64,000 bases of DNA from assembly GCA_963836205.1 (NCBI GenBank), contig CAWIIV010000006.1, forward strand, positions 320,001-384,000, in the 5' to 3' direction. Made by a program: the position numbers and the translations under genes. The DNA comes from an uncultured Acidimicrobiia bacterium (GTDB lineage: Bacteria; Actinomycetota; Acidimicrobiia; Acidimicrobiales; AC-14). The notes below the pieces were generated by a model. It ran no database searches. It worked only from the letters and a program-made list of their open reading frames with translations, and was not told the origin of the DNA. Shown piece by piece: positions 11,118 to 52,773 of the stretch; within the stretch, counting starts at the first letter, position 1; the number at the start of each line of letters is the position of its first letter.

Positions 11118-11127
11118 GCGGCGCACG

Positions 11128-12225: not shown

Positions 12226-12249
12226 AGTGCGGGCGGGCCACGGCCGGCC

Positions 12250-14309: not shown

Positions 14310-15570
<1,261 letters not shown>

Positions 15571-15574
<4 letters not shown>

Positions 15575-16518
15575 CCGTCGTCCCCCGGGTGCTGGTGCTG
15601 GGAGCCGGCTCCATCGGGGCGCGTCATGCCCGCAACCTGGCCGCGGCGGGCGCTGCGGTGTCGATCACGGACCCGGCCCCCGGCCGGGCCGAGGCGGTTT
15701 CGGCCGCGGTCGCCGTGCCGTTCACCGACGGGGCCTTCGAGGGTTACGACGGCATCGTCGTCGCCAGCCCTACCAGCTTTCACGCGACGCACGCCGAGAT
15801 GGCCACCCGTCATTGTGATCGGGTGATGGTCGAGAAGCCGCTGGCGGCGACCGCGGCCGAGGCCGACGCCCTCGCCGACGCGGTGGGCGAGCGCCTTATG
15901 GTCGGCTACAACCTTCGCCTGCACGCGCCAATGGAGCGCCTTGTGGCCCTCGTCCACGACGGCACCGCCGGATCCGTGCTCGGACTCCACATCTGGTTCG
16001 GGAGCTACCTCCCCGACTGGCGGCCCGGCACCGACTACCGGACGACCTATTCGGCCCGGGCCGACCTAGGCGGCGGCGTCCTGGCCGACGCCATCCACGA
16101 GATCGACATGCTCCTCTGGCTGCTCGGGGATGGGCTGGAGGTCGTCGGCGCCGCGATCGGCAACACCGGCACCCTCGAGATCGACGTAGAGGACACGGTC
16201 AAGGCGGTGCTCCGGCACACCTCGGGTGCGACGGTCGACATGTCGCTCGACTACCTGAGCCGGCGCTACCGCCGGGGCGTCGAGGTGGTGGGCGAGCGGG
16301 CCACGGTCAGGCTCGACTGGGCTCGCGCCTTGATCGAGCGGGAGGACGGAGACTCTGTCGTGACCGAGGAGGCGTCTACGCCGGTGCACGTCTCCTACGA
16401 GCGCGAGGCGCAGCGATTCCTCGACTGGATCACGACCGGGGCGCCACCCCCCGTCGACGGCGCGGAGGGAGCCAAATCGGTCCGCCTGGCCAACCGGCTA
16501 CGGGAGTGCGCCCGATGA
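15571..16518 (+). CDS. Gfo/Idh/MocA family oxidoreductase
   Basis: GAGSIGARH, VEKP, VGYNLR, GGGV..D.IHEID. Confidence 0.88.
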
Positions 16519-17561
16519 CGGTCCTCGGCGTCGTCCAGGCCCGGATGGGATCCAACCGCCTGCCCGGGAAGGTGGTCGCCGACCTCGGCGGCGGCTATCG
16601 CGTACTGGGGCTGCTGCTCGAGCGGCTCCGGCCGGCTCCGTTGGACATCATCGTGGTCGCCACCACCACCGCGCCCCACGACGACGTCGTGGAGGAACTA
16701 GCCCGCTCGACGGGAGTGGCGGTGGTGCGGGGCTCCGAGGACGACGTCCTTGGTCGCTTCGCCCTCGTCCTCGAGACCTACCCCGCCGACCACGTCGTCC
16801 GAATCACCGCCGACTGCCCCCTCGTCGACCCCTCCATCGTCGCCACAGTGCTGGACAACCACGCGTGGTCCGGGGCCGACTACACGTCGAACACCCTGAT
16901 CCGCAGCTATCCGGACGGCCTCGACATAGAGGTGGTGTCCGCCGCGGCCCTTCGGGCTGCCCACGCCGAAGCGGTCGACCCTGACGAGCGGGAGCATGTC
17001 ACGCCCTTCGTCCACCGCCGCCCCGAGCGGTTCCGGCTGGCGGCCAGCATCGGGTCCCGTCATCTGGCCCACGAGCGATGGACGCTCGACACTCCGGACG
17101 ACCTGGCGTGGCTTCGTGATGTTGTCGCTCGCCTGCCCGATCCGACGCTCGGGTGGGAACAGATCCTCGCCGTGCGGCCCGTGCCACAGGCACCGGCGCC
17201 GGCCCTCAGGCCGGCTACCGGCGCCGATATCGGCCTCGTAGGCGAACCCGTCGACGACCCTGGCAACCGGGTCTGGCTCCTCGACGACGGGGCGGGATCG
17301 CCCCTGTGGGCGCGCCTCGCCGTCCGCTCGGGGTCAGCCCAGTTGACCGTCGGAGGTGACGTGCACGATCACCACCGAAAGGCCCAACTTGTGTCGTCGC
17401 TCCTCGGCGTGCTGAAACAGGATCTTCAGGTCACCGAGCTCAGGTCCGACGGGCCGCCGGAGGCGCTCCACACTGAGAATGGCTTCGTCAAAGAAGAGGG
17501 TTCGGCCGACCTTCTGTGGCGGCTTCGCCCACCATCGGTAGCGGGCGCGGGGGTGGGTTAG
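16515..17561 (+). CDS. pseF: cytidylyltransferase (SpsF/PseF-like CMP-nonulosonate synthetase) with C-terminal extension
   Basis: QARMGSNRLPGKV, RGSEDDVLGRF, RITADCP, PDGLDIEV, REHVTP, WTLDTPDD. Confidence 0.75.
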   Translation: MTVLGVVQARMGSNRLPGKVVADLGGGYRVLGLLLERLRPAPLDIIVVATTTAPHDDVVEELARSTGVAVVRGSEDDVLGRFALVLETYPADHVVRITADCPLVDPSIVATVLDNHAWSGADYTSNTLIRSYPDGLDIEVVSAAALRAAHAEAVDPDEREHVTPFVHRRPERFRLAASIGSRHLAHERWTLDTPDDLAWLRDVVARLPDPTLGWEQILAVRPVPQAPAPALRPATGADIGLVGEPVDDPGNRVWLLDDGAGSPLWARLAVRSGSAQLTVGGDVHDHHRKAQLVSSLLGVLKQDLQVTELRSDGPPEALHTENGFVKEEGSADLLWRLRPPSVAGAGVG

Positions 17562-17984
17562 ACGACACTCGGGCAGATCAGCCGGATCGTGCCGCGATGG
17601 CGAACCTATCGCTGCGATCTTCCTGCGTCGGCTCGCAGTTTTGGGGAGATCGACAGCTGGGACCGGTACGCACTCGCTCGCGACTGTCAGCGGGGGCGGA
17701 GTGGCCTCTCCGTCCAATGTGTCGTTTAGTTTCATACCCTGTTGTGACAGCACCTGCTAGTACCACTTGCGAACTCCCCATAGCGCCACTAGACAGGCGG
17801 CTTGCTGCGCTGGTTGGCGTTGCTGGGGAGAGGACTGGAGGCACGGCGGCCTGCTTGAACGGCGGTAACACCTGCGACTCGCGCCGTAGCTGGCGACCGG
17901 TGCCTTTTGGTCGGCTTTGGGAAGGACCGCGCCCTGCCTTGGGTGCGCTCGGGCAAAAACCGAAGATGGCGGAGGTGCCAGGAG

Positions 17985-20900
17985 ATGATGGCCCAGGTAA
18001 TGAAAGCGAGGCGGTGTTTCAGGAATCTGGTCAAGGTTGCAGTCGGCCTCTTGGCCTGCGCTACGATGCTGGCGGTGGCCACGGGCCCGGTCGCGGCTCA
18101 GGGCGCACCGGCTGACCTCAGGGCCAAGCTCGATGACGCCGCCGGGGGCCAGGCCCGCCTCGCCGACCAGGCCGGCACCGGCTTGCTCCGCTTCTTCGGC
18201 ACCACCAAGGACCACGCCGTGGCCCGGGCCCGGGGCGTGGCGGCCGACGCCACCCCCGAAGTCGCCGCCCGCAGCTTCCTCGGCACCTACGGCTCGCTGT
18301 TCGGGGCCCACGACCAAGGGCATCAGCTCCAGGCCACCCGCTCCACCACCTCCGACGAGGGCCGCTCGACGGTGCGCTTCCAGCAGGTCCACAACGGCGT
18401 GGCCGTCTACGGGGGCCAGCTGATGGTGAACCTCGACGCCGACAAGAACGTCCTGTCGGCCAACGGCGAGCTGCTGCCCTCCCTGACGTTGGGGACCACG
18501 CCCGCCATCAGCGCGGGCGAGGCGCAGGCCGCGGCGATCGCGGCCATCGCCAAGCAGCGCGACCTCGACCCCGCCGGGCTGCGGGCGGGGCCCGGCTCGC
18601 AACAGATTCACAACCCGGTGCTGCTGGGCGACGGCGGGCGGCCGGTCGACTCGCTGGCGTGGCTGACCGAGGTCACCAACCCCGGCGGCGACCCCATCCG
18701 GGAACAGGTGCTGGTCAACGCGAAGACCAAGGCCGTCCTGCTGCACTTCGACCAGATCGCGGAGATCAAGGACCGCACCATCTGCGACCGCAATAACGTC
18801 GTCAACCCCGACGAGAGCTGCACCCCTATCACTCGCATCGAAGGCAGTGGTCCCAGCGGCATCCTCGACGTCGACCGGGCCTACGACTACTCCGGCGCCA
18901 CCTACGACTACTACTTCACCAACTTCGGCCGGGACAGCATCGACGACGCCGGCCTGCCCCTGCAGTCGGTCACCCGCTTCTGCCCCGACGCAGGCAGCTG
19001 CCCGTATGGCAACGCCTTCTGGAACGGCGCCAACATGGTGTACGGCGACGGGTTCGCCTCGGCCGACGACGTGGTGGGCCACGAGCTGACCCACGGCGTG
19101 ACCCAGTACGAGTCGGGCCTCTTCTACTACTACCAGTCGGGCGCCATCAACGAGTCGCTGTCGGACGTGTTCGGCGAGCTGGTCGACCTCACCGACGGGC
19201 TTGGCACCGACACCCCCGGGGTGCGGTGGCTCATGGGCGAGGACCTGCCCATCGGCGCTATCCGCAACATGCAGAACCCGCCGGCCTACGGCGACCCGGA
19301 CTCGATGGCCAGCCTCAACTACGTCACCGGCGCCGGCGACAACGGTGGCGTGCACAGCAACAGCGGGGTCAACAACAAGAACCTGTCCCTCATGGTCGAC
19401 GGCGGCACCTTCAACGGCGTCACCGTGGCCCCCCTGGGCACGACCAAGGCAGGGCACATCTACTACGAGGCCCAGACCAACCTGCTCACGTCGGGCAGCG
19501 ACTACCGGGACCTCTACGAGATGCTCCAGCAGGCCTGCTACAACAAGGTCGGCGTCGCCGGCATCACCGCCGCCGACTGCGCCGAGGTCAAGAAGGCGGT
19601 CACGGCCACAAAGATGAACCAGTCCGCCCCCGGGGGCGGAGCGCTGGAGGCCCCCATCTGCGAGAGCGGCGACAACCCCACCGACCTGTTCTTCGACAAC
19701 ATGGAGGGCCCCACCAACAATTGGACCTCCGAGGGTTCGGTCGACGGTGGGTGGGTCTACAACGGCGGCTACGCGACCAGCGGGAACCTCCATCTCTTCG
19801 GACCTGACCCCGCCTCTGCAAGTGACCAGACAGCCACCCGGGCAGCACCTGTCATCCCGCCGGCAGACAAGACCACCTACCTACTGTTCAACCACGCCTA
19901 CGACGCGGAGGCCAATTGGGACGGCGGCAAGGTCGAGTACAGCACCAATGGCGGCGGCAGCTGGATCGATGCCGGGCCGCTGTTCGTCGACAACGGCTAC
20001 AACCTCACCAACTCCAACGGTCCCTTCGCCGGCGAGTCGGTGTTCAGCAGCAGGAGCATGGGCTATGGCTCGAGTCGGATCGACCTGACCTCCCTGGCCG
20101 GCGCCAGCGTCCTCTACCGCTTCCGCTTCGCCTCCGACGCCTCCGTCGGCGGCCTGGGATGGTTCGTCGACGACGTGCGGGTGTACACCTGCGGGCAGCC
20201 GGCGCCGTCCATCTCCATCAACGATGTCAGCGTGGCCGAAGGCAACACCGGCACAACGCCGGCCACCTTCACCATCTCCCGCAGCGGCGACCTGACTGAG
20301 ACCTCCTCCGTGGACTACTCCACGTCATCGGGCACGGCAACGCCCAACGTCGACTTTGGTGGCCTGTGGTTAAACACCAACTTCGCCGCCGGGGAGTCGT
20401 CCAAGACCGTGATCGTCAACGTCAACGGCGACACCCTCGACGAATCCAACGAGACGTTCTCTGTCGTCCTCCTGCTCCCGGTCGGAGGGATCGTGTCCGA
20501 CGACGTGGGCGTCGCCACGATCGTCAACGACGACTCGGCGCCGTCGCTCACGATCAACGACGTGGCCGTGGTCGAAGGCAACGCCGGCATCACCGTGGCC
20601 GGCTTCACCATCACCCGCTCGGGCGACGTCAGCGGGGCATCCTCGGTGAACTACGCCACCGCCGGCATCCAGGCCACGGCCGGGACCGACTTCGTCAACG
20701 TGGGCACCACCACGGTGAACTTCTTGGCGACGGAGACGACCAAGACGGTGAACATCACCGTCAACGGCGACACCACCGTCGAGGCCCACGAGAACTTCCT
20801 GGTGGCGCTGGCCACGCCCGTCAATGCCGTCATCGCCGACAGCCAGGGCATCGGTACCGTCACCGACGACGATGTCGGCACTCCGGCGAGGATCTCGGTC

Positions 20901-22259
20901 AACGACGTGCCTGTCACCGAGGGCAACGCCGGCACCCTCAACGCCACCTTCACCGTGACCCGGACCGGCAGCACCGCCGAGGCGGTGTCGGTGTCGGCGC
21001 TCACCGCCGCCGGCACGGCCACCGCCGGCACCGACTACACCACCACCGGGCCCACGGTGCTCAGCTTGGGCATCGGGGTGACCTCGGCCAACTTCGTGGT
21101 GCCAGTCGTGGGAGACGTCCTCGACGAGCCCAACGAGACGTTCTTCGTCAACCTCACCCTGCCGGTCAAGGCCACCATCATCGACAGCCAGGGGGTGGGC
21201 ACCATCGTCGACAACGACGGGGTCCCCAATCCCGCAGGCCCGGCCACCTTCCTCGCCGTCAACGACGTCACCGCCAGCGAGGGCAACGCCGGGCTCACCA
21301 ACTTCAGCTTCACCGTCACCCGCTCGGGCAACGTGGCCGGGGCTTCGTCGCTGACCTACAAGACCTTCCAGGGCACGGCCAAGCTGGGCACCGACCTGAT
21401 CCTGGTCGACGACGCGGCGGTGAGCTTCGCCGCCACCGAGACCACCAAGACGGCGGTCGTGCAGGTCTACGGTGACCCCAACGCGGAGACCAACGAGACC
21501 TTCGTCATCAGCCTCCGCAACCCGGTGGGGGCGACGATCTCCGACTCGATCGGCACCGGCATTATCACCAATGACGACGCCGGCCTGCCGGGCAGCCTGG
21601 CCGTCAACGACGTCATCGTCGGTGAGTCCAACTCGGGGACCGCCACCGCCACCTTCACCGTGACCCGCTCGGGCAACTCCGCCGAGCCGGTGACGGTGAA
21701 CTTCGCCACCACCAACGGGACCGCCGCAGCCCCCGGCGACTATGTGGCCATCAGCTCCACCAGCTTGATCTTCGCCGAGCTGGAGACGACCAAGACCGTC
21801 AGCGTGGCCGTCAAGGGCGACGGTACCGTCGAGGGCGACGAGACCTTCTTCGTCAACCTCTCCCTGCCGGTGGGTGCCGCCATCGCCGACACCCAGGGCG
21901 TGGGCACCATCAAGAACGACGATCCGCTGCCCAGCCTCAGCGCCAACGACGTCTATGTCACCGAGGGCAACGGAACCCGCAAGACCGTCACCGTGACGGT
22001 GACCCGCGCCGGCGACCTGTCGGGGGCATCGTCGGTGGCCTACACCACCAGTGCCATCACGGCCACGTTCGGGGTCGACTACCTGCCCGCTTCCGCCATC
22101 CTCAACTTCGCGGCCGGCGAAACGGCCAAGACCATCACGGTCACCATCATCGGCGACAGCGAAGCGGAACCCAACGAGACCACGGCCATCGCCCTGAGCT
22201 CACCCGTCGGCTTGACGATCTCCGACAACGGCTTGATCACGATCGTCAACGACGACTGA
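17985..22259 (+). CDS. secreted M4 (thermolysin-family) metallopeptidase with propeptide, beta-sandwich domain and six Calx-beta domains
   Basis: Signal peptide, FTP propeptide (RFQQ...V.VYG), NAFWNG, HELTH, GAINES, GVHSNSG, six NDV..EGN...TI.NDD repeats. Confidence 0.92.
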   Translation: MMAQVMKARRCFRNLVKVAVGLLACATMLAVATGPVAAQGAPADLRAKLDDAAGGQARLADQAGTGLLRFFGTTKDHAVARARGVAADATPEVAARSFLGTYGSLFGAHDQGHQLQATRSTTSDEGRSTVRFQQVHNGVAVYGGQLMVNLDADKNVLSANGELLPSLTLGTTPAISAGEAQAAAIAAIAKQRDLDPAGLRAGPGSQQIHNPVLLGDGGRPVDSLAWLTEVTNPGGDPIREQVLVNAKTKAVLLHFDQIAEIKDRTICDRNNVVNPDESCTPITRIEGSGPSGILDVDRAYDYSGATYDYYFTNFGRDSIDDAGLPLQSVTRFCPDAGSCPYGNAFWNGANMVYGDGFASADDVVGHELTHGVTQYESGLFYYYQSGAINESLSDVFGELVDLTDGLGTDTPGVRWLMGEDLPIGAIRNMQNPPAYGDPDSMASLNYVTGAGDNGGVHSNSGVNNKNLSLMVDGGTFNGVTVAPLGTTKAGHIYYEAQTNLLTSGSDYRDLYEMLQQACYNKVGVAGITAADCAEVKKAVTATKMNQSAPGGGALEAPICESGDNPTDLFFDNMEGPTNNWTSEGSVDGGWVYNGGYATSGNLHLFGPDPASASDQTATRAAPVIPPADKTTYLLFNHAYDAEANWDGGKVEYSTNGGGSWIDAGPLFVDNGYNLTNSNGPFAGESVFSSRSMGYGSSRIDLTSLAGASVLYRFRFASDASVGGLGWFVDDVRVYTCGQPAPSISINDVSVAEGNTGTTPATFTISRSGDLTETSSVDYSTSSGTATPNVDFGGLWLNTNFAAGESSKTVIVNVNGDTLDESNETFSVVLLLPVGGIVSDDVGVATIVNDDSAPSLTINDVAVVEGNAGITVAGFTITRSGDVSGASSVNYATAGIQATAGTDFVNVGTTTVNFLATETTKTVNITVNGDTTVEAHENFLVALATPVNAVIADSQGIGTVTDDDVGTPARISVNDVPVTEGNAGTLNATFTVTRTGSTAEAVSVSALTAAGTATAGTDYTTTGPTVLSLGIGVTSANFVVPVVGDVLDEPNETFFVNLTLPVKATIIDSQGVGTIVDNDGVPNPAGPATFLAVNDVTASEGNAGLTNFSFTVTRSGNVAGASSLTYKTFQGTAKLGTDLILVDDAAVSFAATETTKTAVVQVYGDPNAETNETFVISLRNPVGATISDSIGTGIITNDDAGLPGSLAVNDVIVGESNSGTATATFTVTRSGNSAEPVTVNFATTNGTAAAPGDYVAISSTSLIFAELETTKTVSVAVKGDGTVEGDETFFVNLSLPVGAAIADTQGVGTIKNDDPLPSLSANDVYVTEGNGTRKTVTVTVTRAGDLSGASSVAYTTSAITATFGVDYLPASAILNFAAGETAKTITVTIIGDSEAEPNETTAIALSSPVGLTISDNGLITIVNDD
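20200..22256 (+). repeat. six tandem Calx-beta repeats of about 115 aa
   Basis: Recurrent S(I/V)NDV.V.EGN.G, FT(V/I)TRSG, F...ETTKT, GD...E..ETF, GTI.NDD. Confidence 0.85.
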
Positions 22260-26792: not shown

Positions 26793-28486
26793 TCAACCGT
26801 CGTCAGGGCGAGCTCCCGGGCCCCGCCGATGACCTCTGCTCGACGACGATGCCAGGCCGCCGGCCCCGTTCTTGGCCCCTTTGTTCTTCGCGGCCCCGTT
26901 TCTTGCGGCCTGGTTCTTGGCGGCCCCGTTCCTCTCGAATCTTCCACGGCTCGGTGGCGTCTCTGACTCGTAGCGGTAGCCGTAGCCATACCTAGCGTCC
27001 GCCTCGACACCGTTCAGGACAGCTCCGACCAGGGGGCCGTCGACCTGGCGTACTTTTGCGATGGCGGTGGCGGCGTCCTTGCGGGTGGTCTTGCTGGCGG
27101 AGAAAACCATCAGGGTGGCGTCGACGTGCCGGAACATGACCAGCGCGTCGGTCACGGGGAGCACGGGCGGTGAGTCGATGAGAACGATGTCGGCCTCGCC
27201 GGCGAGGGCCGAGAAGACGTCGCCGGCCCGTTGGGACGAGAGCAGCTCTGAGGGATTCGGTGGCATCGGGCCCGACGCCAGCAGCCGAAGGCGGGGGATC
27301 CCAGGGACGGCTTGGAGCGCAGCCGAGACCGGGCGCTCACCAAGAAGGGTCGAAGTGAACCCGACCGCGTTCGACAATCCGAAGAAATCGTGGATGCGGG
27401 GCCGACGCAGGTCGCAGCACACGATGACCACCCGCTTACCCGCCATCGCCATGGTTACAGCCAGGTTGGCTAGGGTAGTGGTCTTGCCCTCGCTGGCGTT
27501 GGCGCTGGTGACCTGGACCAGGCGCATGGGGTGGTCGATGGCTATGAAGTCGATGGCCGTACGCAGGGCGCGGTACGCCTCTGCCGCCGCCGACTGCGAC
27601 GCCGCCGCCGCCACGACCCTGGTGCTGCCCTTCGCCTTCCAGCCGCTCACCTCGGGGATCTCGCCGATAATTGGAATCGCGCCCGTGACCCGCTCCAGCT
27701 CCTCACGACTCTTGATCGTGTCGTCGAGGTACTCGACCAGGAAGGCAAGGCCGACGCCCAGCAGGGAACCGACGACCACAGCCAACACACCGTTGCGGAG
27801 CGGCGTCGGCTTGATGGGTGAGGCGGGCACGGTTGCAGAGCGGACGAACTCGGCACCGCCGGTGATGAGTGCGCTCGTCACCTGCAGCTGGTCGAGGGTG
27901 TTTTGAAACAGCGACTGCTGCTGGACCAGGGCCTGCCGCTGTGACCTGAGCTGTGTTCGGATCGCCTCCCGAGGCTGTCGATCTGGTCTTGGAGGAGGTC
28001 GATCTTGGATCGGACCTCCTTCTGGGCGGCAAGAGAGTCGTCGACCCCCTGCTGGCGCCGGTTGGCGATGTAGGCATCGACGTAGGCGTTGGCCACGGCA
28101 GCAGCCCGTTCGGGATCGGCACTTTCAGCGATGATCTCGACCACCGCAGTGTTTCCCACCGGCCGAACCGTGACGGAAGGGGCCGAACCCAGCCGGCGAC
28201 GTACCTCGTCGCGGACAGGGTCGCCCTTGACCACCTCGATCTCGGTGGCGACGAACTGTGCGGTCTCGTTGCCCTGCTGGTTGGTGGCGTCGAACGGCGA
28301 GAGGCCTGGGCGGGGTTGGATGCGCATCCTCGCAGCAGCCGCGTACACCGGTGTCTGCAGGAACGAAACGAGCAAAGCCAGACCCAAGACGACCGCCAGG
28401 GTCACGGCGATGACGGCGCGACGGCGCCGCAGGACCTGCAGGTAGTCGCGAAGCTCTAGTTCTTCGTCGGACGGCTCATCGAGCAC
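26793..28486 (-). pseudogene. wzc: Wzz-Wzc polysaccharide co-polymerase/tyrosine autokinase split by a frameshift near 27968
   Basis: N-half ELELRDYL (Wzz). C-half has AEAYR.LRT, Walker A SANASEGKTT, DLRRP, DSPP and the Tyr cluster YGYGYRY. Adding one base at 27968-27970 fuses the halves. Confidence 0.8.
26862..26931 (-). repeat. imperfect 15-bp tandem repeat encoding (K/R)N(G/Q/K)(A/G)A in the wzc tail
   Basis: RNGAA KNQAA RNGAA KNKGA KNGAG. Confidence 0.6.
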
Positions 28487-28540: not shown

Positions 28541-30403
28541 TCACCCCTCCAGCCAATCAGTGGTGTCGACCGCCTCGATCGTCGACAAGTAAGCCATGCT
28601 CCCGACAAGGGCGGCCGCGTCGTCCATGGGGTCGAGGGCTTTCGCCTCCACGGGGTCGAGCGGAGGCACGGGGACCTGGGAGATCAGCGGATGGGTTGGG
28701 CGGAGGTCGACTTCGCCCTTGGCCAGCAGGATCTCGTGGAGCTTCTCGCCTGGCCGAAGCCCGGTGAACTCGATCTTCACCTTGCGCGGAGACCGGGCCG
28801 ACACCAGCCGTGCCACCTCGGCGATCGACACCGGCTTGCCCATATCGAGCACCATCGCCTCTCCCGGCCGACCGACGGCCCCGGCCTGGATCACCAACTG
28901 CACCGCCTCCTCGACGGTCATGAAGTAGCGGGTGACGTCCGGATGGGTGACGGTGATCGGCCCGCCCCGCTCCACCTGCGCCTGAAACGTGGTCAGCACC
29001 GAGCCCCGGCTGCCGAGCACGTTCCCGAAGCGCACGCTCAGGTAGGCGGCTCCGGTGATCTCCGAGTAGTGGCTGGTGAGGCGCTCGGTGATGCGCTTCG
29101 AGTACCCCAGGACGCTGCAGGGGTCGGCGGCCTTGTCGGTGGAGATGTTCACGAATCGCCGTACCCCCACCTCGGCCGCCAACTCGAGCAAACTGAGGGT
29201 GGCGAGGATGTTCGTCTTCACCGCCTCCGCCGGGTAGCGCTCGAGCATCACCAGGTGCTTCAGTGCGGCTGCGTGGAACACCACCTCGGGCCGGTGCTCC
29301 TCCAGAACCGCCCGCAGGGCCGGTCGGTCGCGGATGTCGACGAGGACGAGGTCGGGCGAGTCGAGCAGGGCCCGACCCTCGATCGACAACTGCACCGCGT
29401 GCAGGGCCGACTCGTCGCGGTCGACCATCACCAGGTGGGCCGGCGCGAATCGGTAGAGCTGCCGGCACAGCTCGGACCCGATCGAGCCCCCGGCACCCGT
29501 CACCATCACCCGCTTGCCGCTGATGTAGCCGGCGATCGCCTCGATGTCGGTCTTGATCTCGTGCCGACCGAGAAGGTCGGCGGTGGTGACGTCGCGGATG
29601 TCGTCGACCTCGACCCGTCCCTCGAAGAGCTCCCTCACTGGAGGGAGGACCTTCACCGCCAATCCCGCCTGGAGGGCGAGCTCGCTCATCTCGGTTACCA
29701 GGTCGGCAGTCGCACTGGGAACGGCGATGAGCAAGGTGTCGGCGCCGGTGACCGCCGCCACGTCGGCCAGCCGAGAGCGGGTGCCAAGTACGGGCACGCC
29801 CATGATGCGCAACTTGCGCTTCGAGAGGTCGTCGTCGAGCAGTCCGACGGGCAGGAAGCCACTCGTCGGGTCCTTCAGCAGTTGCGGTACGACCTGCGCC
29901 CCGCCTTCGCCCGCCCCGAACACCAGCAGCCGGTGTATGTCGTCCCCACACGGCCGGCGCCGGCGGTCCATGGCCAGCCGCCAGGTGTAACGGATGCCAC
30001 CCATGAGCAGCATCGCCACGAGGCCGGCTACGACAGGGACGGTAAGGGGGACGAGGCGCGGGCTCGTGATGGCGTTGGCCGACGCGACAAGCACGGTCGT
30101 CAGTCCAACTGCCTTGGCCAGAGATGCGACCTCGTCGAAGCTTCCGAAGCGGGACCGGCCGGTGTAGGTGCCGAAGGCGACGCCAGCGAACGCCTGGGAC
30201 GCCACCGCCGCCGGCACGAGGAAGAGGAGGCCGCCGAACTTGCCGCTGGCGTCGACCAGCTCGTAGCGCAGCATGATGGCCGCGACCAGGGCGAAAGCCC
30301 ATGCGGCGGCGTCGAGGAGGCCTTGTATCAGCGCCCGATGGCGACCCAGGCCGACGAAAAGGCGGTTCCCGTCCGGCTCCTCGTCACGACCCCGGGTCGT
30401 CAT
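28541..30403 (-). CDS. membrane-bound UDP-GlcNAc 4,6-dehydratase (CapD/PglF/WbpM family)
   Basis: N-terminal TMs, FGAGEGG CoA-binding-like domain, DLLGR, TGAGGSIGSEL, HAAALKH, STDKA, RFGNVLGSRGSV, GLRPGEKL. Confidence 0.92.
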   Translation of the reverse strand: MTTRGRDEEPDGNRLFVGLGRHRALIQGLLDAAAWAFALVAAIMLRYELVDASGKFGGLLFLVPAAVASQAFAGVAFGTYTGRSRFGSFDEVASLAKAVGLTTVLVASANAITSPRLVPLTVPVVAGLVAMLLMGGIRYTWRLAMDRRRRPCGDDIHRLLVFGAGEGGAQVVPQLLKDPTSGFLPVGLLDDDLSKRKLRIMGVPVLGTRSRLADVAAVTGADTLLIAVPSATADLVTEMSELALQAGLAVKVLPPVRELFEGRVEVDDIRDVTTADLLGRHEIKTDIEAIAGYISGKRVMVTGAGGSIGSELCRQLYRFAPAHLVMVDRDESALHAVQLSIEGRALLDSPDLVLVDIRDRPALRAVLEEHRPEVVFHAAALKHLVMLERYPAEAVKTNILATLSLLELAAEVGVRRFVNISTDKAADPCSVLGYSKRITERLTSHYSEITGAAYLSVRFGNVLGSRGSVLTTFQAQVERGGPITVTHPDVTRYFMTVEEAVQLVIQAGAVGRPGEAMVLDMGKPVSIAEVARLVSARSPRKVKIEFTGLRPGEKLHEILLAKGEVDLRPTHPLISQVPVPPLDPVEAKALDPMDDAAALVGSMAYLSTIEAVDTTDWLEG

Positions 30404-30589: not shown

Positions 30590-31366
30590 TCATAGGACCT
30601 CACCTTGATGGATCCCCGTGGCCTCTGGTATGCCGTTCGACCCGGGGGCGAGGGGGTCATCGTTCACACGTCGGCGCTGATCGAGAGAAAGGCCGTCGGG
30701 GGCCGTGGAGGTATCCTGTCGATCGCCCGGGGAGGGGGCAGGCCCGTCGTCGGACCGCTCCCCAGCCGACGCGTTGGTCGACTGCCAAGCCGGGCGCTTA
30801 CCCAGCTGTTCCCAGATCTGGGCGGAGCGGGGCGAGGGCGCGGTCCGGCGCGACTCGAGAAGTCCGACCAGATCGGCCTGCACCTGGCTCACCTTGTCGA
30901 TCCCGGCGCGAATGTCAGGCAAGTCGGCGACAGTGCGGTCAAGCTCGCCAACGGCATCGGCGATCGAACGGAGATCCGAGGCGATCGCGTCGACAGCTGC
31001 TCGAAGCGAAGACAGGGTGTCGTCGCTCTCAGCGCGAGCGCGCTCGGCGCCCTGGAAAATTGTGTACACAGCCTTCAGCTGTCGGCCCAACGTCGCGACA
31101 GAAACCACCACATCCTCGAGTGATGCGGCGGTGTCCGGCTCTACTGTTTCCGCCACCGTTGGGTGCACCACCAGCGCCGATCCGCTTCTGATGCCACGGT
31201 GCGGGGCATGGGTTCGAGGCCCTGCCGCCCAGACCTCCTTGCACCCCGCGTACCGACCGGCACACTCGGTCCCGCAGACGTCGCAGCGACACGACGTACG
31301 GCCGGCCGCCATCGGCTGGCCGCAGGCGTCGTGGATACGCACTCCAAACTCGGCACACCATCCCAC
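30590..31366 (-). CDS. hypothetical protein: N-terminal 7-Cys domain plus coiled coil
   Basis: AGGAG SD before GTG. First 50 aa are 25/50 identical, without gaps, to 31613..32815. Confidence 0.75.
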   Translation of the reverse strand: MGWCAEFGVRIHDACGQPMAAGRTSCRCDVCGTECAGRYAGCKEVWAAGPRTHAPHRGIRSGSALVVHPTVAETVEPDTAASLEDVVVSVATLGRQLKAVYTIFQGAERARAESDDTLSSLRAAVDAIASDLRSIADAVGELDRTVADLPDIRAGIDKVSQVQADLVGLLESRRTAPSPRSAQIWEQLGKRPAWQSTNASAGERSDDGPAPSPGDRQDTSTAPDGLSLDQRRRVNDDPLAPGSNGIPEATGIHQGEVL

Positions 31367-31612
31367 GTCGCGTTACTCCTCGGATATTCCAGTCATTCGG
31401 CCAGCGCGCAACCTGCTCAGGCGGCGAGTATTAGGGGCCGATCCCGCAGATCCGTCATTGTAGACAGCGGGCGGGGGTCACCGACAGGGCGCCGACCCCT
31501 CACTCTGCCGACGAGACCGCGCGACGGCTGGTAGGCGAGCCCACGTCGCGGCCGGGCCCACCCTGTCTGCTTCACTCGGATTTAGAGCACCCGGCCGGTA
31601 GGATCGACGGGA

Positions 31613-32815
31613 ATGGGATGGTGCCGCGACTTCGGCTCGCAGATTGCGGAGGGATGCGACCACCCGATGCAGGCCGACTCCGATTCCTGCCACTGCGAGC
31701 GGTGCGGGGTTGTCTGCACGGGCAGGTTCGAGGCCTGCCCGGCGGTGTGGGCCCAGGGCCCGCAGCCCGTCGTGATCACCTTGACCTCAGCAGACGCCCT
31801 GTTGGACGGTCCCAGGTTCGAGAGCCAGATCACCAACGGTCATCAGACGCTCGAATCGGGGGCCACCAACCCGCCCTCCACGGCCACCCCCGCCGCCCCC
31901 GCGAATGCGCCGCCCGAGACCACGGCTCCCGCCGGCGCTACCGGTGCCGAGGTCTTGCGTTCGTACGAGAGCGCGTTCGATGAGCTCCGCCTGGAAGTCA
32001 AGGGACTCCGGTCGTTCCAGGAAGCCTTCGACTCGCTCCGGTTGGAGGTGGAACATCTCCGTTCGTTCCAGGACGATTCCGACGCGCTCCGCGTGGCGGT
32101 GGACGGTCTCCGCCGCGCCTCCACGCACGAAGCGAGCCTCGTTGCATCCCTGGTCGAGAACAGCGCCGAGAGTCGCCTCGACGAGGCGGCTCTCGGCAAG
32201 CTCGTCACCAGCGCGGTCCAAGTAGCAGCGCGGAGGGAGGCGGCCGACCTTGAGACCGCTCTGGCCGCAAGTGTCGACGCCATGCGCGATGACATGGAGG
32301 CTATGAGGCAGGCCCACGAAGACGGCCTGGCCAGCCTACGGGTGTCGATAGAGGCTACGTCAGCGGCGTTGCCGGCGGATCTGAGCCGGCGGGACTCCGG
32401 CAACCGCAAGGCGTTGCGGACGACGCTTCATGAGGAGTTCCAGCCGCTCGTGGAGGTGGTCGCCGAGTCGGTCGCCCAGTCCGAGTATCAGCTCCAGGCC
32501 CTCGACCGGAGGTTGGACAAGCTCGAGGAGCTGGGGCGATCGTTGGCGGCCGGCCTCGCAACGGTGTCGGCGTCGTTGGAGGTACTCCTCGGGGAGGAAT
32601 TGCAACCGGACGACGACCTCACACCGGTTCGGCCCCGACCTCCCAGGCAGGCGGCGGGGGCCCGGGCAGCGTCTGGGTTCGTGTCTCGGGCCACTGGCTC
32701 CAGCACAACTCCCGCGCTCTCCAGGCGTCAGCGCAACGACACCCCTGCGGGCCCCGGGGAACGGGTCGCCGGCGGCAGGCGAGTCTCGATGCGCGGTCCG
32801 ACTGACGACGGGTAG
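31613..32815 (+). CDS. hypothetical protein: N-terminal 7-Cys domain, Pro/Ala linker, long coiled coil, basic disordered tail
   Basis: Paralogous N-terminus to the divergent gene, heptad-rich helical region, TAGGAT -10-like element at 31599. Confidence 0.8.
   Translation: MGWCRDFGSQIAEGCDHPMQADSDSCHCERCGVVCTGRFEACPAVWAQGPQPVVITLTSADALLDGPRFESQITNGHQTLESGATNPPSTATPAAPANAPPETTAPAGATGAEVLRSYESAFDELRLEVKGLRSFQEAFDSLRLEVEHLRSFQDDSDALRVAVDGLRRASTHEASLVASLVENSAESRLDEAALGKLVTSAVQVAARREAADLETALAASVDAMRDDMEAMRQAHEDGLASLRVSIEATSAALPADLSRRDSGNRKALRTTLHEEFQPLVEVVAESVAQSEYQLQALDRRLDKLEELGRSLAAGLATVSASLEVLLGEELQPDDDLTPVRPRPPRQAAGARAASGFVSRATGSSTTPALSRRQRNDTPAGPGERVAGGRRVSMRGPTDDG
31961..32113 (+). repeat. 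three 51-bp (17-aa) tandem repeats within the coiled coil
   Basis: SYESAFDELRLEVKGLR / SFQEAFDSLRLEVEHLR / SFQDDSDALRVAVDGLR. Confidence 0.75.
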
Positions 32816-34601: not shown

Positions 34602-36065
34602 ATGGTGACTGGAACGGCGGCCGGACCCAGACGTGCGCGGGGCCGTCTTGGCGCAAGGACGGCGCCCATCGCGGGTCTCGTGGTGGCTGCCACGCTTGTG
34701 CTCGCCGCCCCCGCGTCGGCGTTCCTCTTTGCCAACGCAGGACCCGAGTTTCCAGGATCCGTCACAGTCGGCCAGATCTTCAGCGCCACGGTGGGCCTGC
34801 ACAACTTTTCGACGCCGCCACAGAGCATCACCATCCCCGTCATCACGGCGTCCGACATCGATCTCGTGCCGGCCTGCACCAACACCACCCAGGACTGCCC
34901 CGGCGGGATCGACGCGGGCGTGTTCCAGACCACGACGGGCATCGGCGCCGGATCGGGCCCCGCCAGCTGCACCGGCACGTGGACGGTCATCGAGACCACA
35001 CCCGGCACGTTCCGATTGAACCCGCCCGGTGGCAACGGGTCGCTCGCGCTCGCCACCGGCGAGATCTGCACCGTCAGCTTCCCGCTCATGGCGATCCGTA
35101 TGCCATCAGTCGACGCCAGCGCCGCGGCCGGGGTACAGACCAATCAGGCAACAGGTGTCACCTTCCACGCGCCAGCGCCGATGTCCCGTCAAGGACTTGC
35201 GACCGCCACCACGGTCAATCCCGCCCCGATCGTCCCGCCCGCCGACTTCAACGGTGACGGCTCGACCGGCCTGTCCGTCTACCGACCGTCGACCAGCCTC
35301 TGGTATTCGACCGGCTCGTCGGTCGCGTGGGGCACCGGCGGCGACATCCCCGTCCCCCGCGATTACGACTTCGACGGGACGACCGACCGTGCCGTCTACC
35401 GACCCTCGTCGGGCGTCTGGTACGTCCAAGGCAGCTCGGGTGGTACCACGTCGGTCGCGTGGGGCGCGACCGGCGATATCCCGGTGCCGGCTGACTTCGA
35501 CGGTGACGGCAAGACCGACCGCGCCGTGTTCCGACCCTCCTCCGGGTTCTGGTTCGTCCAGCGCAGCGCGGGCGGTACCACGTCGGTTGCGTGGGGAGCG
35601 ACCGGCGACATCCCCGTTCCCGGCGACTACGACGGCGACGGCAGGGCCGACCACGCCGTGTTCCGGCCATCGACGGGTGTCTGGCAAATGCAGCGGAGCA
35701 CAGGCGGAGCGACCTCCGTCGGGTGGGGTGCGGCGGGCGATATCCCCGTCCCCGGTGACTACGACGGCGACCTCAAGACCGACCTCGCCGTCTTCCGGCC
35801 GTCGGCCGGGGCCTGGTTCGTCCAGCCCAGCACGGGCGGCGGCACGTTCGGCGCGTGGGGTGTCAGCGGCGACATTCCCGTCCCCGGTGACTACGACGCC
35901 GACGACAGGACCGATCAGGCCGTGTTCCGGCCCTCGTCGGGCATCTGGTACGTGCAGCTCACCTCGGGTGGCTCAATTGCCAGCGCCTGGGGCGTCAACG
36001 GCGACGTTCCCCTCCCCCTGCCGGCGGCCATCGGGCGGTTCTTCTTCTCGCCGCCGTTCCCGTGA
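34602..36065 (+). CDS. secreted protein with Cys-containing beta domain and six FG-GAP/VCBS-like repeats
   Basis: Signal peptide ending APASA, then six repeats of about 44 aa: PGDYDGDG..D.AVFRPS.G.W...WG..GDIPV. Confidence 0.85.
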   Translation: MVTGTAAGPRRARGRLGARTAPIAGLVVAATLVLAAPASAFLFANAGPEFPGSVTVGQIFSATVGLHNFSTPPQSITIPVITASDIDLVPACTNTTQDCPGGIDAGVFQTTTGIGAGSGPASCTGTWTVIETTPGTFRLNPPGGNGSLALATGEICTVSFPLMAIRMPSVDASAAAGVQTNQATGVTFHAPAPMSRQGLATATTVNPAPIVPPADFNGDGSTGLSVYRPSTSLWYSTGSSVAWGTGGDIPVPRDYDFDGTTDRAVYRPSSGVWYVQGSSGGTTSVAWGATGDIPVPADFDGDGKTDRAVFRPSSGFWFVQRSAGGTTSVAWGATGDIPVPGDYDGDGRADHAVFRPSTGVWQMQRSTGGATSVGWGAAGDIPVPGDYDGDLKTDLAVFRPSAGAWFVQPSTGGGTFGAWGVSGDIPVPGDYDADDRTDQAVFRPSSGIWYVQLTSGGSIASAWGVNGDVPLPLPAAIGRFFFSPPFP

Positions 36066-46264: not shown

Positions 46265-47791
46265 CTAGTACGCCCCATGGCGGCGGAGGACGGCCGTGAG
46301 GGTCTTGGCGATGATCGTGGCGTCCATCGACAGAGACCAATTCTCCACGTAATAGAGATCGAGGCGAACCGCTTCATCCCAGGGCAGCCCGGCCCGGCCT
46401 CCCACCTGCCACAGGCCGGTGATCCCGGGCTTGACGAGGAGTCGACGACGGACGTGGTGGTCGTACCGCTCCACCTCGCAGGGCAGGGGCGGACGAGGGC
46501 CGACAATCGACATATCGCCTCGCCCGACGTTCCACAGTTGGGGGAGCTCGTCGAGCGACCAGCGGCGTAGGAAGCGGCCGACACGGGTGACCCTCGGATC
46601 ATCCTGCATTTTGAAGAGAACACCGTCGTGCTCGTTGAGATGCTGGAGCTCGCCGAGCTGATCCTCGGCATCGACCCTCATGGTGCGGAACTTCCAGATC
46701 ATGAAGTGCCGGCCACCGAGCCCGACCCGCACCTGCCGGAACAACGCCGGTCCCCTGCTCGTGAGGCGCACGACCACGCCGATCAGCAGGAGGAACGGGA
46801 GGAGAACGACGATCCCGGCACCCGCGAGGAGGCGATCGAACGCGCCTTTGGCCAGCCGCCTGCGACCCTTGAGCTCCGGCTCCTCGACCAGCAGGAGGGG
46901 GATGTCGGACAGCGCCCGGATGGAAATGTGGGGACCGGTGACGTCGGTGAGGGCGGGCGCCACCATGAGATCGACCCCGGTGCCCTCCAACTGCCAGGCG
47001 AGTCGCCGCAGCGACCCGTTGGTGAAGGAATCGGTGTCGGCGATGGCGACCACGTCGGCCTGGGCCGCGACGACTGCCTCCAGGGTGAACTCCGGATTAC
47101 CCAGGACGGGAACCGGCCGACCCTCGACGTCGAAGGTGACCACCGGATCGGCCATGCAGGCGCCGATCACCGAGAGGCCACTGTCGCCGCCGGCGCGCAG
47201 CTGGATAATGAGATCCCGGCTTGCCTCCATTGACCCGACGACAAGGACTTTCTTGGTGAACCGCCCCGTCCGACGCATCCGGTGCAGCCACCGACGGAGC
47301 GCGTACCGCCCGGCCAGGGTGAGGAGCGTGGCCACGGGAATGGCGATGGCGACGAAGCCCCGCGCCACGTCGATCTTGAAGAGGAAGCCCATGAGGGACA
47401 CCACCAGCAAAAACCGGATCGCGGCGTCGAAGACCCGTCTGTACTCCTCGGTGCCCCATCCGTAGTAGCGGCGGTCGTAGGCGCCGCCGAGCGTCATCGT
47501 GATGACCCACACCGGGGCGGCGGCGAAGGCCACGCCGACGTAGGAGAGCACCACTCGCCCGGTCGACGTCGTACCGAGGTTGCCGAACCGAACCCACTGG
47601 GCGACGAAAGACCCCAGGATCACGGCCGCCGAGTCGAGCACGGCCAGGGCGCAGGCGTACGGGCGCCACCATGTGGAGGCCGACCGGGACCGGACAGCCG
47701 AGACCGGGCCGGCCGCCGTGCCGTGCTCCTGTCGTACTCGGGTGTCGCTGTCGAGCATCACCACGTCCGCCACCTTCGCGATGAGAGGCAC
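46265..47791 (-). CDS. priming polyprenyl glycosylphosphotransferase (WcaJ/WbaP family)
   Basis: K..FD, SRGPALFRQ.RVG, KFRTM, DDPRVTRVG, SLDELPQLWNV, VGPRP, KPGITGLWQV. Confidence 0.93.
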   Translation of the reverse strand: MPLIAKVADVVMLDSDTRVRQEHGTAAGPVSAVRSRSASTWWRPYACALAVLDSAAVILGSFVAQWVRFGNLGTTSTGRVVLSYVGVAFAAAPVWVITMTLGGAYDRRYYGWGTEEYRRVFDAAIRFLLVVSLMGFLFKIDVARGFVAIAIPVATLLTLAGRYALRRWLHRMRRTGRFTKKVLVVGSMEASRDLIIQLRAGGDSGLSVIGACMADPVVTFDVEGRPVPVLGNPEFTLEAVVAAQADVVAIADTDSFTNGSLRRLAWQLEGTGVDLMVAPALTDVTGPHISIRALSDIPLLLVEEPELKGRRRLAKGAFDRLLAGAGIVVLLPFLLLIGVVVRLTSRGPALFRQVRVGLGGRHFMIWKFRTMRVDAEDQLGELQHLNEHDGVLFKMQDDPRVTRVGRFLRRWSLDELPQLWNVGRGDMSIVGPRPPLPCEVERYDHHVRRRLLVKPGITGLWQVGGRAGLPWDEAVRLDLYYVENWSLSMDATIIAKTLTAVLRRHGAY

Positions 47792-50943: not shown

Positions 50944-52656
50944 TCAGGGGTCGCGGCGAGGGGTCTTGGCGGGAGCGGCGGGACGGCCCCGGCCGTTCGT
51001 CGGGGCCGACCGAGCGTCCGTGGCCAGCGGGGTGCTCGCCGCCGCCTCTTTCCCCACTCTCGGGGGAGCCGTCCTGTACTCGTACGCATAGGCCGAGCCG
51101 TAGCCACCCGAGGTCGGGACGCCGTTGAGCAAAACTCCCACGAGGGGGGCGTCGACCTGGGCCGCCATGGCCAAGGCCGTCGCCGCCTGCTTCTGCGAGG
51201 TCTGCCCGACGGCGAAGACCATGATGGTGGCGTCGACATGGCGGAACAGCACCAGGGCGTCGGTGACCGGCAGCACCGGCGGAGAGTCGATGAGGACGAT
51301 GTCGGCGTCGGCCTTGAGGGCGGCGAACACCTCCTTGGTGCGGCCGGAGGAGAGCAACTCGGACGGGTTCGGCGGCAGAGGACCCGAAGCCAGCACCCGC
51401 AGCCGGGGGATGCCGGGCACGTTCTGCACTGCGCGCGTGATGGGAGCCTCGCCCAGAAGCATCGACGTGAACCCGATCTCGTTGGAGAGACCGAAGAACT
51501 CGTGGAGCCGGGGTCGGCGGAGGTCGCAGCAGACCAGGGTGACCCGCTGGCCGGCTTTGGCCAGGGCGACGCCCAGGTTGGCCAGGCTCGTGGTCTTGCC
51601 TTCGCCCGCGTTGGCGCTGGTGACCTGCACGACGCCCATCGGTCGGTCGAGGGCCACGAACTGGATGGCGGTGCGCACGGTGCGGTAGGCCTCGGCCGCC
51701 GGGGAGTTGGGGGCGTCCAGGGTGATGAGCTGGACGTCGGCCCGTTCCTTCCAGCCTCCGACGGCGGGGATGACGCCGATGACGGGGGCGCGGCCCGCGA
51801 TCTTCTCCAGATCTTCCCTGGTCTTGATCGAGTCGTCGAGGTACTCGGCCAGGAAGGCCAGCCCGATCCCGAGCATCAGGCCCATGAGGAGCGCGAGCAC
51901 CGCGTTACGTATCGGCTGCGGCCTCACCGGCGAGGTCGGCAGCTCGGCATCGCCTGCCGGCTGCGCCCCACCGGTGGCCAGCTTGGTCTCCACCGTGAGC
52001 TTGTCGAGCGTGTCCTTGAACGCCGCCTGTTGCTGCACCAGGGTCAGGCGCTGGGCACTCACCGAGTCCCTCGTCGGCCCCGGGGCGGCGGCATCGGCGG
52101 CCGGCTCCGCCCGCAATTGGTCGTCCAGCGCCGTGATCTGCTGCTGGAGGGTGCTGATGCGGTCCTGGATCTGCTCGCCGGCCGCCAGGAGGCCGTCGAC
52201 CACCTGCTGGCGACGGACCTCGACGTAGGCGGCGGCGTAGGTGTCGGCCACCAGCACCGCCCGTTTCGGGTCCGCGCTCTCGGCGGTGACCTCGATGACG
52301 TCGGTCTGGCCCACCGGGCTGGCGGTGATGTCAGGGGCGGAGCCGAGCTTGTCGCGGACGGCGTCCTTGACCAGTTGGCTCTTCAGGATCTCGATCTCCG
52401 TGGCCAGGGCGCGGGCCGGGTCGGTGCGCTGACCGGTGTTGGGGTTGAACGGGGACTCGGACTGGTTGTCACGGATGACCAGCCGGGCGCTGGCGGCATA
52501 GACTGGCTCCTGGACGTACGAGGCCAGCAACGCGGCGCCGACCACAACGGCGACGGTGAGGAGCGCAACTTTCTTGCGGCGCCTGAGCACACGCAGGTAG
52601 TCGCGCAGCTCTAGCTCAGATGTCGAAACCTGCTCTGTCGCCGTGACCACCGCCAT
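50944..52656 (-). CDS. wzc: Wzz-Wzc polysaccharide co-polymerase/tyrosine autokinase (intact)
   Basis: ELELRDYL, two TMs, AEAYRTVRT, SANAGEGKTT, DLRRP, DSPP, Tyr cluster YGSAYAYEY. Confidence 0.92.
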   Translation of the reverse strand: MAVVTATEQVSTSELELRDYLRVLRRRKKVALLTVAVVVGAALLASYVQEPVYAASARLVIRDNQSESPFNPNTGQRTDPARALATEIEILKSQLVKDAVRDKLGSAPDITASPVGQTDVIEVTAESADPKRAVLVADTYAAAYVEVRRQQVVDGLLAAGEQIQDRISTLQQQITALDDQLRAEPAADAAAPGPTRDSVSAQRLTLVQQQAAFKDTLDKLTVETKLATGGAQPAGDAELPTSPVRPQPIRNAVLALLMGLMLGIGLAFLAEYLDDSIKTREDLEKIAGRAPVIGVIPAVGGWKERADVQLITLDAPNSPAAEAYRTVRTAIQFVALDRPMGVVQVTSANAGEGKTTSLANLGVALAKAGQRVTLVCCDLRRPRLHEFFGLSNEIGFTSMLLGEAPITRAVQNVPGIPRLRVLASGPLPPNPSELLSSGRTKEVFAALKADADIVLIDSPPVLPVTDALVLFRHVDATIMVFAVGQTSQKQAATALAMAAQVDAPLVGVLLNGVPTSGGYGSAYAYEYRTAPPRVGKEAAASTPLATDARSAPTNGRGRPAAPAKTPRRDP

Positions 52657-52773
52657 CCAGCCTAACCGGCCGTCGCCGGGCTCAGTCCGGCTCAGCCACA
52701 ATGTCAGTCAGCCGCGCCCACGAGCTGTTTCGCCGCCAGTAGCCGTTTCGATCGACAAGGGAGAAGGCGTCGC

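Follow-up and report, generated by a model that had tools for sequence, protein, structure and literature searches.

What are the two divergent genes that stand head to head in a polysaccharide locus of an uncultured Acidimicrobiia bacterium, and what could be the role of the cysteine-rich module with which both of their products begin? The genes, here P0001 and P0002, lie in a 64,000-nucleotide stretch of contig CAWIIV010000006.1 (C6:320001-384000; henceforth the window) from an assembly of 4.05 Mb in 25 contigs that is 88.6% complete. We find that they belong to an undescribed family with five members in this genome, typified by an N-terminal seven-cysteine head that a linker rich in Pro and Ala joins to a Cys-free tail, helical or coiled-coil and different from member to member; the family is cytoplasmic in character, with neither transmembrane (TM) segments nor signal peptides. 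Across several genera and orders the genes for these proteins show a strong, non-random linkage to genes for Wzc-type tyrosine autokinases, the master regulators of capsule and exopolysaccharide (EPS) assembly.

Both open reading frames (ORFs) were recovered as divergent genes 246 bp apart that share an N-terminal module of about 50 residues, as a preliminary description of this DNA had proposed: BLASTP aligns residues 1-51 of the two products without gaps (E 1e-16), with 24/51 identities as printed, or 25 if the GTG start of P0001 is read as methionine. This similarity is far beyond chance, because the module recurs five times in the genome and in 511 cluster representatives (see below). The seven-cysteine pattern given in that description holds in both proteins (C4-x10-C15-x2-PM-x6-C26-x-C28-x2-CG-x2-C35-x-GR-x3-C42-x2-VWAxGP), each of which has exactly seven Cys, all within the head. 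The parts after the head, said there not to align, indeed yield no segment better than E 16 by BLASTP, and the claimed lack of TM segments is matched by the absence of any TM-like segment from either protein. The coiled coils that it assigned to both are only roughly supported: a crude heptad scan marks residues 108-149 of P0001 and 215-244 and 279-326 of P0002, and the two tails draw only sub-threshold matches to coiled-coil-type Pfam families. A scan of the intergenic region, uninformative for high-GC actinobacteria, returned no sigma-70-like consensus site.

A six-frame hidden Markov model (HMM) scan found five copies of the head in the source genome (E <= 2e-22; next best E 0.79), four of them within an 88-kb stretch of contig C6 (301-389 kb). 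A head profile (A2) built from 17 sequences, all from published genomes, was scored against 1.84 billion cluster representatives and retrieved 511 proteins at E <= 1e-3, 289 of them at E <= 1e-10. The expectation that homologues would always carry the module N-terminally was borne out, the head starting at annotated residue 1 in 136/161 proteins; of the other 25, two are N-terminally truncated, and 23 begin upstream of the head yet show M or V at model position 1 and are therefore regarded as over-extended gene calls. The start codons of 28 heads from published genomes comprise 24 ATG, 3 GTG and 1 ATC. The cysteines are likewise conserved among the homologues, with all seven present in 159/159 heads. 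In the 149-row alignment A3, C4, F7, G8, C15, C26, C28, C31, C35, G37 and C42 are invariant and M1, G2, H17, M19, A21, F39, V45, W46, G49 and P50 are at least 90% conserved; H17 is found in 147, M19 in 153, G2 in 157 and W46 in 158 of the 159 heads. The cysteine spacing is C-x10-C-x10-C-x-C-x2-C-x3-C-x6-C, with a single CxxC and a core CxCxxCxxxC that is followed by xG(R/K)F.

This conserved head is, as initially supposed, a real domain that had escaped recognition, with no Pfam, NCBIfam or PDB family above threshold. Pfam and NCBIfam models gave no match to the head of P0001 or P0002, and the head profile found nothing significant among PDB sequences (best E 0.12), where asparaginase and the Cys-rich loop of NPC1 were rejected as chance cysteine matches. 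The ESM Atlas, searched with residues 1-56, returned unnamed clusters and no lead (best score 0.77). The source names of 12 cluster members consist of "hypothetical protein" and one evident mis-annotation, and the sources label the organisms of family members only as "Actinomycetota bacterium". One further locus, from an "Actinomycetota bacterium" MAG, was retrieved with P0002 and left aside. Searches for longer forms with the heads of P0002 and of P0164 revealed no fusion to Wzc or to an enzyme, and no candidate longer fused form of the P0002 head, which is weak evidence. A single 5-FTHF cyclo-ligase match among 149 members scanned with Pfam probably comes from an over-extended gene call.

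The distribution is lineage-restricted: most carriers belong to a single family of the Actinomycetota, and the rest of the class has few. The head is present in 20/40 relatives, or 21/41 genomes counting the source: in 7/7 genomes of the same genus (2-7 matches each), 18/24 of the same family and 2/16 from other families of the order. Some of the genomes counted here are flagged as unpublished (G009, G015, G021, G023; G008 and G017 are also flagged), and without the six flagged genomes the figure for the family is 14/18. An even sample of the class yielded the head in 5/300 other genomes.

To assess the genomic context, we mapped Wzc-like genes in 41 genomes using Wzc2 (Table 1) as the query, the expectation being the fraction of the genome covered. 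In the published genomes, a Wzc-like match occurs within 500 bp of 15/57 heads (0.15 expected) and within 5 kb of 25/57 (0.63 expected); the tightly linked pairs of relatives include Wzc-module operons with gaps of 20-80 bp. The latter 25 comprise 15 divergent arrangements, six with Wzc ahead of the module gene, three with the module gene ahead of Wzc and one convergent; by genus they make up 19/40 heads in g1, 4/5 in g10, 1/3 in g8 and 1/2 in g14, with 0/7 in six other genera, mostly on short contigs. More independent support for the link comes from the genomes of five members that belong to other families or orders. In 4/5 of these a Wzc-like gene stands directly next to the module gene: divergent and 1.3 kb off in L070, following the module gene in L071, and preceding it at about 0.3 kb in L072 and L073. 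The fifth (L069) has no Wzc within 10 kb and adjoins DUF4012, WecA-like GT4 and UDP-glucose dehydrogenase genes.

Wzc-like loci number only three in the source genome. Two of them have module genes no more than 3.1 kb away, three of the genome's five in all: P0001 and P0002 are 2.7-3.1 kb from Wzc1, and copy D is 3.1 kb from Wzc3. All three are bona fide bacterial tyrosine (BY) kinases, scoring 147.5, 152 and 145.3 bits against TIGR01007 (cut-off 108). By sequence identity the pairing is paralogue-specific across genera, P0002-type genes going with Wzc1-type and copy-D-type genes with Wzc3-type kinases. The 20-kb regions round the P0002 orthologues of seven relatives contain a Wzc homologue; CapD and the methyltransferases were not found in them. 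Thus, of the link to glycan machinery (Wzc, CapD) that was first suspected, the part concerning Wzc-type genes stands and that concerning CapD and the methyltransferases falls away. Complex predictions combining the Wzc1 kinase part (residues 56-335, 8-row alignment), two Zn and P0002 (18-row alignment) gave an interface score (ipSAE) of 0.00 in both runs and count neither way.

P0002 is accompanied in the database by 19 relatives of 336-439 aa, 17 of which, aligned in A5, are 41-55% identical to it over the alignment. Common to this group are the head, an NGH linker motif (N75 and G76 invariant, H77 at least 90% conserved), the helical block 253-297 and a C-terminal RVSxR. The tail of P0001 has no relative among the proteins and loci fetched. 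Its head is 49% identical to that of P0002 and 63-67% identical to the heads of other short members; therefore, the two are old paralogues and not the product of a recent inverted duplication. The head-to-head pairing is not conserved among the relatives: in G002, G003, G006 and G007 a different, long (640-840 aa) module gene stands in tandem ahead of the P0002 orthologue. The source-genome relative of this long gene, copy A, sits 50 kb away, and its downstream ORF is 46-60% identical to the four tandem neighbours and 42-67% identical to the relatives' long module proteins overall. Hence two module genes side by side are a recurrent arrangement, and the head-to-head layout of P0001 and P0002 is specific to the source genome.

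What the head might be is indicated by weak similarities and by modelling. An AlphaFold2 (AF2) model from the 149-row alignment (mean predicted local distance difference test score, pLDDT, 71.7) shows short beta hairpins together with a single helix (residues 42-47); that from a 17-row alignment (pLDDT 59.4) is too low for use. Foldseek searches of the PDB with the AF2 model gave a best E of 2.0, the weak rows being mostly zinc-ribbon proteins, all at E >= 2, and a wide VIA-align search gave a best Z of 2.2. Counting Pfam families matched at E <= 10 by two or more of the 17 heads, we obtained Zn_ribbon_DUF2089 (five heads, best E 0.0089), AZUL (three) and the treble-clef zf-tcix (two), all of them Zn-binding and all sub-threshold; the P0002 head scores 14.2 bits (E 0.049) against Zn_ribbon_DUF2089 (PF22747), short of its gathering cut-off of 27.6 bits. 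The family thus has no confident match to a characterised zinc-finger family, every such match being below cut-off, and zinc_ribbon_5/4 (PF13719/PF13717, the ZitP/MJ0042 type) is not matched at E <= 10 by P0001, P0002 or the 17 heads. We infer a compact domain of knuckle- or ribbon-like type that is stabilised by metal. Seven Cys together with His17 would make eight ligands, enough for two tetrahedral sites, and two Zn sites formed by these residues, or with another fourth ligand in place of His17, would be the most likely arrangement.

Our preferred reading, held tentatively and at somewhat less than an even chance, is that a Zn-type docking head and a self-associating tail make these proteins cytoplasmic accessories of Wzc-dependent polysaccharide assembly. 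The head would serve as a metal-stabilised protein-docking module and the tail for self-association, so that the whole protein would scaffold or modulate, from the cytoplasm, polysaccharide assembly of the Wzx/Wzy type. The most plausible site of action would be the side of Wzc that carries the cytoplasmic kinase. In this scheme Wzc1 would have P0002 as its conserved partner, and P0001 would be a species-specific extra copy heading the CapD-Wzc1 gene run.

Several points weigh against this reading. The predicted AF2 model of the head is of only moderate confidence and is without a significant structural neighbour, and both metal binding and any protein contact are putative. His17 is replaced in 12/159 heads, P0001 (Q) among them, so no simple Cys7His two-Zn scheme can apply throughout the family. 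The relatives are not independent, so that Poisson figures for the linkage overstate its significance, and 32/57 heads, some on short contigs, have no Wzc-like match within 5 kb; copies A and E in particular occupy clear non-Wzc contexts. In addition, Wzc-like genes or fragments occur without the module in 6/24 home-family genomes, and Wzc therefore does not need it. Finally, the divergent arrangement, the commonest with Wzc, is also typical of regulators, and four long members have a C-terminal BTAD, a domain typical of SARP activators.

The last two points lead to an improbable alternative, namely that these are transcriptional regulators of polysaccharide loci, whose heads would bind DNA, RNA polymerase or a sigma factor, whose tails would oligomerise and whose targets would be the divergent genes, as for the 15 of 25 heads within 5 kb of Wzc. 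Two of nine long members that were scanned (L059 and L047) end in a BTAD domain, one (L058) carries DUF2497-like repeats, and of the remaining six, two have coiled-coil-type matches only and four have no match. The search with the P0164 head uncovered two further database proteins that combine the seven-Cys head with BTAD (P0165 and P0166, 866 and 876 aa); the BTAD-tailed subfamily spans 866-953 aa, and one source names its protein a SARP-family activator. However, BTAD lies about 650 aa from the head, unlike in SARPs, and neither BTAD (PF03704) nor an OmpR-type DNA-binding domain is present in P0001 or P0002. The net charge of the heads is -1.7 on average (range -5 to +2), an acidic mean that argues against nucleic-acid binding, and no DNA-binding family is matched. 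Moreover, 2-7 heads per genome, as in genus g1, and coiled-coil tails of up to about 1,200 aa would be unusual for regulators.

A redox or metal sensor, in which the head would hold an Fe-S cluster (or Cu or Ni, possibly via the N-terminal amine after removal of Met) and the cofactor would gate assembly of the tail, is similarly improbable. The seven invariant Cys, the near-invariant Met19 and His17 and the CxCxxCxxxC core fit such a sensor, as does the obligatory residue-1 position with G2 in 157/159 heads, and the conserved residues exceed the need of a single structural Zn site. Nevertheless, the ferredoxin-type 4Fe-4S motif is CxxCxxCxxxCP, and the ferredoxin-like spacing originally read into the core is not exact; P0001, P0002 and the 17 heads have no Fer4-family match even at E <= 10, WhiB and metallothionein families are equally absent at that level, and the weak matches obtained are to Zn families only.

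The tails bear on a third alternative that we regard as unlikely to much the same degree: a scaffold of general use, cytoskeletal or polar and comparable to PopZ, DivIVA or Scy, that would have no direct export role, the Wzc link then reflecting a shared region of cell-envelope genes. Cys makes up 0.1% of the tails of 161 proteins and the median number of Tyr is 0; the tails are rich in A, R, L, P and E, with TM-like segments in 3/161 proteins and RVSxR within the last 45 aa of 19/159 family members. Pfam scans of 149 members found coiled-coil-type families, each in at most three members, and a DUF2497 match in one. Consistent with a scaffold are tails of up to about 1,200 aa of coiled coil, and a 1,236-aa member (L058:714-4421 (+), genome G018) in which at least 16 tandem units of about 20 aa (V.PE.R..L.ERLP.LVAE.V) match DUF2497 (PF10691, the C-terminal domain of PopZ) at 100 bits. 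An HMM of this unit detects 8/163 proteins at E <= 1e-3, copy D, with one unit, included. The presence of 4/5 genome copies inside the 88-kb stretch and the non-EPS contexts of copies A (between the atp operon and a WecA-like GT4 gene) and E (beside HflX) point the same way. Against it, the gaps of 20-300 bp to Wzc in three orientations are tighter than regional clustering explains, and the same Wzc adjacency is seen in single-copy genomes of other orders. DUF2497 has no match in P0001 or P0002, and the unit HMM scores P0001 at E 1.9 and P0002 not at all; a DUF2497-like unit suspected by eye in the conserved block of P0002 was accordingly rejected.

Least probable of all is a reading for P0001 only, in which a duplicated head, joined to unrelated sequence, would be decaying or would have lost its function, leaving P0002 as the sole functional gene of the pair. 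The tail of P0001 has no relative among the sequences fetched, its third-codon-position GC content (GC3) of 0.74 is the lower of the pair (0.83 in P0002), its start is GTG and copies A and E of the genome are frame-broken, but its own 258-aa frame is intact, it keeps the seven Cys and all other invariant head residues, a good Shine-Dalgarno-like GAGGAG stands about 10 nt upstream of the GTG, and the 63-67% identity of its head to other short members shows that it is not a recent P0002 copy.

Returning to an accessory role at Wzc, a bolder version of it, which we consider unlikely, would make the head a new metal-dependent (possibly redox- or metal-gated) docking domain by which self-assembling scaffolds, coiled-coil or PopZ-like, are brought to the ring that Wzc forms in the cytoplasm. 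The family would then be a hitherto unknown class of soluble BY-kinase partners that position or gate polysaccharide export machines in Actinomycetota. If this were true, a coupling of export to transcription could have come about as the family expanded, on the one hand into Wzc-partner pairs specific to each paralogue and on the other into forms with a BTAD tail.

Some features of the other copies deserve mention. Copies A (L035:9133-11750 (+)) and E (L037:6248-9537 (-)) are each split over two frames in the source genome, the downstream ORF of copy E being 79-82% identical to the intact tails of its relatives; they are either pseudogenes or assembly frameshifts. Copy E (about 1,040 aa; L037:9537 (-) = G000:C14:253536) has ATC at the Met1 position, three codons past an in-frame TAG. 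The ATC start recurs in 4/4 genomes examined (G000, G001, G002 and G005; L060, L061 and L062), which suggests a conserved non-canonical start codon.

In the window, P0001 heads a same-strand run that continues with the CapD-like gene, the Wzz part and the kinase part of Wzc1, with gaps of 186 bp and 54 bp and then a 4-nt overlap. The pair is also flanked by two methyltransferase genes and FG-GAP protein genes; further out are genes for a Wzx-like flippase, glycosyltransferases, sulfate activation, a WecA-like GT4, a low-molecular-weight phosphotyrosine phosphatase (61979-62635) and UDP-glucose dehydrogenase (Table 1). Wzc1 has the tyrosine cluster YGYGYRY and a TM segment at 28-53. By tblastn it shows a frame change and the loss of about 18 residues just before its second TM segment, and the last 29 or so residues of the Wzz ORF depart from the family consensus; the split reflects either a disrupted gene or an assembly error. 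Homologues of the FG-GAP protein encoded downstream of P0002 occur in G005 (59% identical, its gene divergent from the P0002 orthologue) and in G001 (51% identical, 3.4 kb away); the loci are L040 and L043. The DUF4012 gene recurs beside Wzc and the module gene in distant genomes (L069, L072, L073). Judging from the genes directly beside Wzc2, the polysaccharide may be sulfated. GC3 falls to 0.67-0.89 between about 22000 and 46000, as against mostly 0.83-0.96 in the flanks, and P0001 shares the low value; this is consistent with a variable glycan island. A search of public reads yielded one DNA run with a 0.05 share of words and listed no RNA run.

Table 1. Features of the gene pair and its surroundings, in window coordinates.
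Feature	Position	Strand	Remarks
P0001	30590..31366	-	258 aa, GTG start; orphan paralogue
P0001 head, residues 1-50	31217..31366	-	seven Cys as in P0002; Q at position 17
Divergent intergenic region P0001/P0002	31367..31612		246 bp
P0002	31613..32815	+	400 aa, ATG start; in conserved orthologue group
P0002 head, residues 1-50	31613..31762	+	Cys 4, 15, 26, 28, 31, 35, 42; H17, M19, W46
P0002 Pro/Ala/Thr-rich linker	31763..31948	+	NGH motif at residues 75-77
P0002 most conserved tail block, residues 253-297	32369..32503	+	LPADLSRRD...AESVAQSEYQLQAL; alignment A5
P0002 C-terminal RVSMR motif (RVSxR)	32780..32794	+	kept in P0002 orthologue group
CapD/PseB-like Polysacc_synt_2 dehydratase	28541..30403	-	membrane N-terminal part; between P0001 and Wzc1
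Wzc1, two ORFs	26793..28486	-	PF02706; TIGR01007 152 bits; closest to Wzc beside P0002 orthologues
Wzc1 Wzz part	27878-28486	-	4-nt overlap with kinase part
Wzc1 BY-kinase part	26793-27881	-	4-nt overlap with Wzz part
Wzc2	50944..52701	-	intact Wzz + BY-kinase, 585 aa; no module gene adjacent in source genome
Phosphoglycosyl transferase	46265-47791
DUF4012 gene	48118-50223	-
FG-GAP protein	34602-36065	+	downstream of P0002
APS kinase, CysD-like PAPS_reduct, CysN-like GTPase	52774-55543	+	directly beside Wzc2
NeuB-like synthase, PseB-like dehydratase, class-III aminotransferase, cytidylyltransferase	10909-17561	+	nonulosonic-acid-type sugar pathway
Thermolysin-like M4 peptidase	17907-22259	+	1,450 aa; propeptide motif, MAM-like domain, six Calx-beta repeats; GC3 0.93

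The head family is undescribed: neither curated families and solved structures nor source names and the papers found account for it, and word searches of open-access text, supplements excluded, gave no description of such a head or of a soluble Cys-headed coiled-coil neighbour of Wzc. With 511 representatives, ten invariant residues in alignment A3 (seven of them Cys), the residue-1 position and no curated model or solved relative, the head is therefore a good target for structural and metal analysis. Encoded against Wzc genes in several orders of actinobacteria, a conserved soluble protein of this kind would count as a new component, whose function is directly testable by binding, kinase and localisation assays. 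A limit is set by the origin of the members found, all of them from lineages that are uncultured or have received little study.

Small Cys domains on scaffolds are already a known kind. The protein partners of Wzc known to us are membrane or periplasmic components and a phosphatase. Known modulators of BY-kinases, among them the transmembrane activators CapA/TkmA of Firmicutes, correspond to the Wzz-like membrane half of a Wzc that is split in two. Like these, the P0001/P0002 type is a separate polypeptide encoded beside a tyrosine autokinase, the cytoplasmic domain of which is its presumed target; unlike them, it is a soluble Cys-headed coiled-coil neighbour of a fused Wzc. Fused P-type Wzc is usual in Actinomycetota, according to Table 1 of PMC9800525. 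Proteins of the DUF164 type (Helicobacter pylori HP0958/FlgZ and Mycobacterium smegmatis MSMEG_4306), as described in PMC3372290 and PMC5947703, resemble our family in joining a long coiled coil to a small Cys Zn domain in the cytoplasm. However, their ribbon is C-terminal with two CxxC motifs, whereas the head is N-terminal; they have no sequence match to the P0001/P0002 family and no known link to Wzc.

PopZ is similarly built from an interaction region, a Pro-rich or acidic disordered linker and a helical self-association region, and DUF2497, the conserved C-terminal domain of this polar scaffold (PMC5182065), has counterparts in the units of a subset of the head family, P0001 and P0002 not included; PopZ is alphaproteobacterial and lacks a Cys head. 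In Caulobacter crescentus, the same source relates, the N-terminal four-Cys zinc finger of ZitP, with an essential Trp, docks onto PopZ; its C5, C8, C28 and C31 form two CxxC knuckles that bind one Zn. The head, with seven Cys and one CxxC, differs from this finger (zinc_ribbon_5, PF13719), and ZitP continues into a TM segment and DUF3426, whereas the head family continues into a coiled coil. Both are nonetheless small Cys domains that begin at residue 1 of a cytoplasmic segment and are followed by a linker, and the invariant Trp next to the ZitP metal site (W35) recalls W46, present in 158/159 heads. In that account the ZitP domain is used for protein-protein docking and not for DNA binding, and by analogy the head may have the same role. 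Thus, ZitP and PopZ offer the closest functional analogy for a Cys docking domain at residue 1, to be taken as a lead.

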